Source: Escherichia coli O127:H6 str. E2348/69 (GTDB taxonomy: Bacteria; Pseudomonadota; Gammaproteobacteria; Enterobacterales; Enterobacteriaceae). From it: a stretch of 64,000 nt of DNA. The stretch's first letter is position 1; the number at the start of each line of letters is the position of its first letter. The translations under genes were made by a program, and so were the position numbers. Location: the NCBI RefSeq assembly GCF_000026545.1, contig NC_011601.1, one strand, 5' to 3'. Of the stretch, positions 33,866 to 35,092 are shown piece after piece. The notes under the pieces are model-generated. The model ran no database searches. It saw only the letters and a list, made by a program, of their open reading frames with translations, and was not told the origin of the DNA.

Positions 33866-35092
33866 TTAATTACTGACAGTTTCAGGTTTCGGGAAACTGA
33901 ACAGTAAATCACGGTAGTATTCGTATTGTTTCTGGCGCAACTCGATTTCACGCGGGAGACCTTCAGTGATGGAGTTGGTCAGGGTGTCGAATTTATCGAG
34001 TATTTCGACAATGCGAGCTTGTTCTTCTGAAGGTGGTACAGGTATTGGGAATTTTAAAAACATTGGTCGACGAAGTGAGGTAACCGATGAACTTACTGAT
34101 GCTTTTTGAATATAGGTAAAAAAATATGCTGTTATATAGTGATATACAAATCGCGGATTCATAAATGCATTTGGGACAATACGATATGCTCTCTGATGCA
34201 AAGCATATTTACCTTTAGCGTAATGAAATACCTTCCCCACCCCGGCACCATCTCCAGCTGTAATGATTGCTGTTTCATCAAAATCAAATACATTTAACTT
34301 TAATGGCTCACGTCCACGTGCATAAAAAATATATTTGCCATGTTCTATAGCATCTTGCGTATCATGGTTACCTGTTCCTATAACAGCCACTTCCCCCAAA
34401 GTCTTCCACTCAACCTCACCCTCTTTAAAACTCAACAACTGGTCACGATAGTAGTTGTACTGTTTTTTACGCATGTTAAGCTCAGCGGTAAGCTCAGCGG
34501 TAAGCTCAGCGGTAAGTGCAGTAAATTTATCCAGAATCCGAACGATTTCAGACTGGATGGCAAGGGATTTCTCCGGATTATCCGGGCAGGGGATGGGGAT
34601 TAAGAGCTTTTTTAGGTCGCCCATTGGTAGACTAATTACCGGGTTGCCGACAATTTTTTTGCTATAGTCTTTAACTATTTTACTTGATTGTAATAAATAC
34701 GATAAAAATCTAGGCGCAATTTTTTCCTTAATTGGTTTGATAGTGTAAACGCCTTCTTTGATATTCCAATTTATAGGATTTTCTTCAATTACCGCGATGC
34801 GTCCAACCGTGCCGGTTCCGGAGAACAATATATCTCCAGCTTCTAAATTAGAACGACCATTTATTATTTTTAATGCTCTATCATTTACTCTGTCTGTTTT
34901 ATCAAGAAAGACAACTTTGCCATTCTGGATCTCACGAACAGTTACGTAATATCCTTGGGCATCTAATGTATTTAAGCTAAAATTTTGGCGTGGGTTCAAT
35001 CCCGTTTTTAAGGAATGGATAACTTCTCCCAACATCTTCCACTCAACCTCAACCCCATCCAGCAATTTTCCCAGATAACTTAACTCGCTCAT
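33866..35092 (-). CDS. hsdS: Type I restriction-modification specificity subunit (type IC) with three TAEL repeats in the central conserved region
   Basis: 408-aa ORF; conserved N-terminal ([18 protein letters not shown]), central ([38 protein letters not shown]) and C-terminal ([38 protein letters not shown]) type IC regions; variable TRDs. Confidence 0.9.
34479..34514 (-). repeat. Three tandem copies of a 12-bp repeat encoding TAEL in hsdS
   Basis: agctcagcggta x3 on the plus strand, equal to (ACC GCT GAG CTT)x3 on the coding strand. Confidence 0.95.

Follow-up and report, generated by a model that had tools for sequence, protein, structure and literature searches.

Gene content and neighbourhood of the hsdMSR locus

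The hsdMSR genes of enteropathogenic Escherichia coli (EPEC) E2348/69 (O127:H6) lie in a defence island at the tRNA-Leu gene leuX, together with an SBD-HNH endonuclease, a McrBC-like gene pair and a DUF4942 gene (Table 1; all positions refer to the window, i.e. the whole 64-kb stretch of chromosomal DNA that was analysed). The locus matches 'hotspot 37', at which, according to a 2025 review, 4% of E. coli loci hold type IC systems (PMC12707154). The restriction-gene neighbourhood next to hsdMSR spans positions 36952-42540 and is adjoined in E2348/69 by an HNH pseudogene and a truncated nanS gene, the latter being intact in the Korean strains considered below. On the other side of the hsd genes lies an island inserted at leuX, the cargo of which additionally includes HNH and endonuclease-VII-like genes, a DEAD/DEAH helicase and many hypothetical genes. 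The Korean strains lack this 15.06-kb island and have leuX 225 bp after hsdR; in other strains the site is occupied by a P4-like primase island or by IS21 insertions.

Table 1. Features of the hsdMSR locus and its surroundings, by position in the window
Feature	Position	Strand	Basis or remark
tRNA-Leu(CAA) gene leuX	15258-15342	plus	
15.06-kb island at leuX	15258-30403		bounded by direct repeat of the tRNA 3' end
AbiTii-domain gene of the island	28038-28940	minus	
tyrosine integrase gene of the island	29028-30239	minus	
second copy of the leuX 3'-end repeat	30346-30403		78% over 58 nt, 3' part matching
hsdR, restriction/translocase subunit, 1038 aa	30628-33744	minus	TIGR00348; EcoR124I HsdR (2W00), 2266 bits
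hsdS, specificity subunit, 408 aa	33866-35092	minus	ORF; annotated as restriction endonuclease S subunit
target-recognition domains of HsdS, N-terminal (~aa 25-160) and C-terminal (~aa 235-345)			both unrelated to those of EcoR124I
central conserved region of HsdS, ~aa 163-232	34397-34606 (boundaries approximate)	minus	alignment to PDB 7BST chain A
three identical 12-bp units ACCGCTGAGCTT, putative spacer-length module	34479-34514	minus	12 residues encoded
hsdM, methyltransferase subunit, 518 aa	35089-36645	minus	TIGR00497, 644 bits; EcoR124 M protein (7BST chain D), 1149 bits
DUF4942 gene	36952-37785	plus	
McrB-family gene	38147-40201		distant from K-12 McrBC: 117 bits against a curated cut-off of 637
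McrC-family gene	40198-41508		distant from K-12 McrBC: 108 bits against a curated cut-off of 338
ScoMcrA-like SBD-HNH gene	41571-42443	minus	annotated 'phosphorothioated DNA-binding restriction endonuclease'

Affiliation of the system with the type IC family

All three hsd genes are encoded on the minus strand, with hsdM and the start of hsdS overlapping by 4 bp and hsdR beginning 121 bp downstream of hsdS. These coordinates correspond to the gene order of type IC systems, namely an hsdM-hsdS operon followed by an hsdR gene under separate control. Both HsdR (residues 1-1038) and HsdM (residues 1-518) match their EcoR124 counterparts over the full length. By contrast, HsdS aligns with the EcoR124I specificity subunit (7BST chain A, 404 aa) only over the N-terminal 25 residues, residues 163-235 and approximately residues 346-408. 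Within these regions the two proteins are essentially identical, save that the number of TAEL units is three in E2348/69 and two in the PDB entry. The central region forms the first coiled-coil helix linking the two target-recognition domains, and a preliminary description of this DNA, which had assigned the protein to the EcoR124 family, is borne out by the residue-for-residue agreement of both the central and the C-terminal regions with EcoR124I apart from the extra TAEL. The recognition domains themselves show no alignment with those of EcoR124I, and their other matches are weak (NCBIfam EcoKI-type S, 36 bits; 1YF2).

Membership of the type IC family is classically established by subunit complementation and cross-hybridisation, for which sequence identity serves here as a proxy. 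On this basis, given the identical conserved regions of HsdS, the lack of alignment between the target-recognition domains and the full-length matches of HsdR and HsdM, the E2348/69 hsdMSR locus is to be placed among the type IC (EcoR124-family) systems, its recognition domains being new. The same genes were described by Hobson et al. in 2008, who reported a 408-aa HsdS, with HsdR and HsdM respectively 97% and 98% identical to those of EcoR124I (PMC2518929). These authors made no remark on the repeat or the recognition site; they found that deletion of hsdR in E2348/69 increased transformation by as much as 10^4-fold, with modification being retained (PMC2518929). This effect of the deletion on transformation, with modification intact, indicates that the allele with three TAEL units is active.

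The TAEL repeat array of hsdS

The plus strand at positions 34479-34514 consists of three copies of AAGCTCAGCGGT, i.e. the reverse complement of three copies of ACCGCTGAGCTT. Tandem Repeats Finder delineates the array as 34477-34516, with a period of 12, 3.3 copies, 100% matches and no indels, the additional 0.3 copy being the CTT of the Leu codon that comes before the units. The array is read in the frame of the minus-strand hsdS ORF and falls in the part encoding the central conserved helix. Sequence, repeat detection and reading frame all agree with the coordinates and the description of the TAEL triplet given in the preliminary description, which were exact. The probability of a perfect period-12 triple is calculated as 4^-24 at a given position, or about 2e-10 per 64 kb, and on this expectation the array is not a chance match. 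It is the one perfect array among the two tandem arrays scoring at least 50 in the window. The other (179-220, period 18, 2.3 copies, 91% matches) lies within a frameshifted pseudogene annotated as a hypothetical protein. The window is 100% identical to three independent assemblies of E2348/69, and the presence of three units in each of these makes an assembly artefact very unlikely.

Three units are a common state of the family rather than a peculiarity of E2348/69. The IC-type central region, borne by chromosomes as well as by plasmids, was recovered in 1354 records from 1263 of the 5426 complete E. coli genomes. In a sample of 60 records spread evenly among these 1354, with the units being read from alignment spans, 31 had two units, 26-27 (~45%) had three, one had five and one was interrupted. 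Counting units by means of BLAST identity bands, using 2-, 3- and 4-unit queries, was dropped as a procedure, because differences of two units split the alignment into two perfect pieces and only odd and even numbers were thereby separated. Among the 120 closest HsdS cluster representatives about 110 had two units, a few had three and one had a single unit, a two- to three-unit ratio of 110:4 that may be biased by under-representation of three-unit forms in the clustered collection. A one-unit HsdS known in the family is P0035, with 374 aa. The five-unit form was verified in a 411-aa HsdS with other recognition domains from the pig isolate NT1F10 (L016, 5494-6729), where it occupies the same leuX locus and is accompanied by an hsdM gene split by IS2; judged from this one examined locus, the long five-unit array may belong to an inactivated system. 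Five-unit type IC hsdS genes occur in at least 13 chromosomes, 12 of them from pig or pork and one from a cow.

Natural variation in unit number at near-identical loci

The E2348/69 allele of hsdS occurs in natural strains in two lengths. At this locus the complete chromosomes of the Korean E. coli strains Z1323HEC0423 and Z1323HEC0067 have an hsdS that shows 0 substitutions and exactly one 12-bp unit fewer. An exact-protein look-up in public assemblies recovered the 2-unit (404 aa) protein in 343 index blocks and the 3-unit (408 aa) protein in 148, these figures being counts of blocks and not of independent strains. Both alleles are always found in the SBD-HNH / McrBC / DUF4942 / hsdMSR context with hsdM and hsdR intact.

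An alignment of 11.8 kb from 14 loci resolved two haplotype clades separated by about 200 SNPs, with the 2- and 3-unit states being present in both. Likewise, both unit numbers were observed on each of three different structures downstream of the hsd genes. Where there is no island and leuX/ahr follow directly, a 2-unit and a 3-unit locus (L005 and L011) have 0 mismatches across 17.2 kb besides the 12-bp indel; among loci with the integrase/AbiTii island of the E2348/69 type, a 2-unit locus (L007) differs from the 3-unit window by 7 mismatches; and among those with the P4-like primase island a 2-unit (L008) and a 3-unit locus (L015) differ by 31. Invariance of the repeat count across related strains, which the preliminary description had named as refuting a switchable locus, is thus not what is observed; instead, 2- and 3-copy forms coexist in near-identical loci.

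Of the 2- and 4-copy variants for which that description suggested a search, the former proved to be widespread, but no 4-copy form of this allele was present in the data searched. Specifically, 1- and 4-unit versions of the E2348/69 allele were found neither in the clustered protein collection nor in a second index of public-assembly contigs, and a 5-unit version was not found in the clustered collection. The latter collection falsely lacks the 408-aa E2348/69 HsdS itself (RefSeq WP_001293053.1; the 148 blocks mentioned above come from elsewhere), and the absence of 1-, 4- and 5-unit forms from it is therefore weaker evidence. The proposal that the locus can switch is borne out for changes of unit number on an evolutionary time scale only; all three assemblies of E2348/69 carry 3 units, and there is hence no sign of switching that is fast or takes place on a laboratory time scale.

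Exchange of hsdS modules and unit change in situ

One reading of this distribution is that the 2/3 polymorphism was spread mainly by homologous recombination of pre-existing alleles, without repeated gain or loss of units at the locus. In support of it, a block of about 2.5 kb comprising the 3' part of hsdM, the whole of hsdS and the 5' part of hsdR shows no difference between two clades that are about 200 SNPs apart in the rest of the 11.8 kb. Similarly, the IncY P1-like plasmid pLR-13_1 has a 2.3-kb hsdS block in common with the window, with 1 mismatch, embedded in diverged hsdM and hsdR genes, such that 131 positions differ outside the block and the identity over the whole 6-kb hsdMSR is 97.8%. 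The module extends over positions 32800-35400 of the window (hsdS with ~280 bp of hsdM and ~800 bp of hsdR), 11719-14031 of locus L004 and columns 6366-8926 of the 11.8-kb alignment. These blocks suggest recent recombinational swapping of specificity cassettes among type IC backbones, and the aligned sequences make it clear that recombination has moved the hsdS module from one backbone to another. Given that the module recombines, part of the distribution of the 2- and 3-unit states across backgrounds could reflect import of alleles and not new slippage.

An observation against this reading comes from a third haplotype, in which the first unit is marked by a point mutation (GAGCTT to GAGATT, i.e. 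L to I). Four loci (L020-L023) have GAGATT+GAGCTT, encoding TAEI-TAEL, and one locus (L019) has GAGATT+GAGATT+GAGCTT, encoding TAEI-TAEI-TAEL, with 0 other differences between L019 and L020 across 17.2 kb. An array with two TAEI units is not obtainable by importing a TAELx3 allele, and hence either the marked unit was duplicated or one of two such units was deleted in situ. The unit change separating L019 and L020 thus took place at the locus itself, independently of the E2348/69 allele. That EcoR124 and EcoR124/3 are interconverted through a change in unit number is, moreover, established (PMC3874165). We therefore consider it unlikely that allele import is the main source of the polymorphism, though import and unit change at the locus are not mutually exclusive routes. 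Overall, the haplotypes show that the unit number changed independently at least twice, and probably four or more times. The aligned loci thus demonstrate recurrent natural changes in the number of in-frame 12-bp units, identical in DNA sequence, within the connecting helix of a functional type IC HsdS.

A proposed spacer-length module with two natural states

The relationship between TAEL units and target sequence is well documented for the family. EcoR124I with two TAEL units recognizes GAA N6 RTCG and EcoR124II with three recognizes GAA N7 RTCG, the change between them having been attributed to unequal crossing-over at the 12-bp repeat encoding part of the first connecting helix (Loenen et al. 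2014, PMC3874165). The same review records two further three-unit enzymes, EcoDXXI (TCA N7 RTTC) and EcoprrI (CCA N7 RTGC), hybrids with altered unit numbers in which the spacer shifts as predicted, and an interval between the methylated adenines of 7 for EcoR124I and 8 for the three-unit enzymes (PMC3874165). In a 2023 study, the removal of one unit from EcoR124II altered the set of restricted phages as expected (PMC10644984); the primers given there, accgctgagcttaacatgcg and ctgcacttaccgctgagctt, are identical to the DNA of the window. In the NgoAV system of Neisseria gonorrhoeae, PacBio data revealed GAC N6 TGC with 1 LEAT unit and GAC N7 TGC with 2 (PMC6789123). The rule invoked in the preliminary description, by which two and three TAEL units correspond to N6 and N7 and are interconverted by unequal crossing-over, is accordingly that stated in the review and demonstrated anew by the one-unit deletion.

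Based on these observations we propose, with a probability of about 0.87, that the array is the TAEL module governing the length of the central HsdS helix in a chromosomal type IC system that is functional, with the number of units setting the gap between the half-sites and the in-frame gain or loss of a unit yielding a second specificity. Each 4-residue unit would lengthen the helix that holds the two target-recognition domains apart. As established for the family, a unit would add about one helical turn, and the recognition domains would be shifted and rotated by about one base-pair step, equivalent to 3.4 Angstrom and 36 degrees, changing the spacer by 1 bp. The unit number would in this manner determine the gap between the two half-sites read by the enzyme, with three units in place of two adding one base pair, so that the interval between methylated adenines would grow from 7 to 8 and the spacer nominally from N6 to N7. 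For the E2348/69 enzyme itself, N7 is predicted by extrapolation from EcoR124II, EcoDXXI and EcoprrI; a sturdier prediction is that its spacer would be that of the 2-unit allele plus 1 bp. We infer solely from its abundance and intact partner genes that the 2-unit allele is active. Literature searches found no methylome of E2348/69, no recognition sequence for the enzyme with either allele and no protein accessions.

Slipped mispairing during replication or RecA-dependent unequal crossing-over could add or remove one unit and thereby generate a second restriction and modification specificity from the same genes, and, as the units are identical at the DNA level and 12 bp long, such a change would leave hsdS in its active frame. 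The 3- and 2-unit forms would then be expected to read the same half-sites 1 bp further apart or closer together, and hence to restrict each other's DNA. A cell would probably survive the switch owing to the assembly of type IC enzymes via a cleavage-incompetent R1M2S1 intermediate; restriction alleviation linked to R1M2S1 has been described for type IC enzymes (PMC12707154). An extension of our proposal is that in EPEC and related E. coli lineages the array flips between 2 and 3 units often enough to produce mutually restricting near-clonal strains or even subpopulations within one culture. This is compatible with the fact that all backgrounds examined have both states, some of them in pairs of loci with 0 SNPs in 17 kb, and we regard it as quite unlikely. 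If true, it would set up shifting barriers to the exchange of phages and plasmids among sister strains, perhaps together with two alternative methylation patterns across the genome.

A different reading places the primary role of the array outside defence specificity, making it a rapid phase-variation device that generates mixed populations, with two methylation patterns regulating host genes (a phasevarion). Repeat-driven variation of Type I hsdS genes has indeed been proposed as an epigenetic regulator, with TAEL length changes having been flagged for study (PMC7383803), and the 2- and 3-unit states are both common in nature. Nevertheless, with just three 12-bp units the slippage rate is expected to be low, the three independent assemblies of E2348/69 all have 3 units, and the in-frame unit does not allow ON/OFF switching; furthermore, methylation by three other E. 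coli type I systems was reported to be without effect on host gene regulation (PMC8287963). This makes such a regulatory device distinctly improbable. A Type I system of the ON/OFF simple-sequence-repeat kind was also considered and ruled out, the 12-bp unit lying inside the ORF and the 2-, 3- and 5-unit forms all being in frame.

Finally, that the repeat is just an inherited structural linker, with both lengths specifying the same sites or one length being inactive in combination with these recognition domains, is highly improbable: activity has been demonstrated for the 3-unit allele alone (PMC2518929), but the spacer followed the unit number as predicted in every type IC enzyme tested (PMC3874165, PMC6789123, PMC10644984), the 2-unit allele is widespread and has intact partner genes hsdM and hsdR, and the failure to find 1- and 4-unit versions in the clustered collection and the second index suggests selection for two working lengths.

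The spacer-length module proposed here has practical implications, as E2348/69 serves as the reference strain of EPEC and is known to be hard to transform on account of its type I system. If the alleles differ in specificity, DNA from one EPEC strain would be unprotected in a near-identical strain with the other allele, which would matter both for strain engineering and for interpreting the host ranges of plasmids and phages. No new mechanism is involved, the one at work being found in textbooks, and the system has already been published as functional. What is new is modest, namely the repeat polymorphism of this allele in natural EPEC-related chromosomes and the marked-unit case of gain or loss in situ. 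Together they provide a clean natural case of the EcoR124I/II switch recurring in wild E. coli chromosomes, which was earlier mostly a laboratory and plasmid story.

Comparison with known systems

The closest relatives of the E2348/69 system are the plasmid-borne EcoR124I and EcoR124II (EcoR124/3), which share with it the gene order, the full-length match of HsdR and HsdM and the identical central and C-terminal regions of HsdS. Even the DNA sequence of the 12-bp unit, ACCGCTGAGCTT, is the same, and EcoR124I and EcoR124II have their counterparts in the 2- and 3-unit alleles respectively. Unlike in EcoR124, both recognition domains are different, and the half-sites are consequently predicted to be other than GAA or RTCG. 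The two also differ in location, the E2348/69 system being chromosomal and situated in the leuX defence hotspot, whereas EcoR124 resides on an IncFIV plasmid. Furthermore, the 2/3 polymorphism of the E2348/69 allele is found in natural strain populations, as opposed to the laboratory switching of EcoR124. EcoDXXI and EcoprrI resemble the E2348/69 system in having three TAEL units in the same conserved helix, and EcoprrI is likewise chromosomal (PMC3874165); in contrast to these, E2348/69 has no prrC anticodon-nuclease gene between hsdS and hsdR, which are separated by a gap of 121 bp.

The type IC system NgoAV, with LEAT/EATL repeats, is the best precedent for the spacer prediction, in that its strains naturally differ, like those with the E2348/69 allele, in how many copies of a 4-aa repeat the central helix of HsdS contains (PMC6789123). 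However, it belongs to another species and its repeat has a different phase and sequence. In NgoAV, HsdS can additionally be truncated by a frameshift switch at a poly-G tract, of a kind that the hsdS gene of E2348/69 does not contain. The pneumococcal SpnIII/ivr and tvr loci, with their inverting or shuffling hsdS genes, similarly derive several Type I specificities from one locus. In those loci site-specific recombination among several hsdS cassettes changes the half-sites, whereas in E2348/69 a single hsdS would alter only the length of the gap, by way of the number of its repeats.
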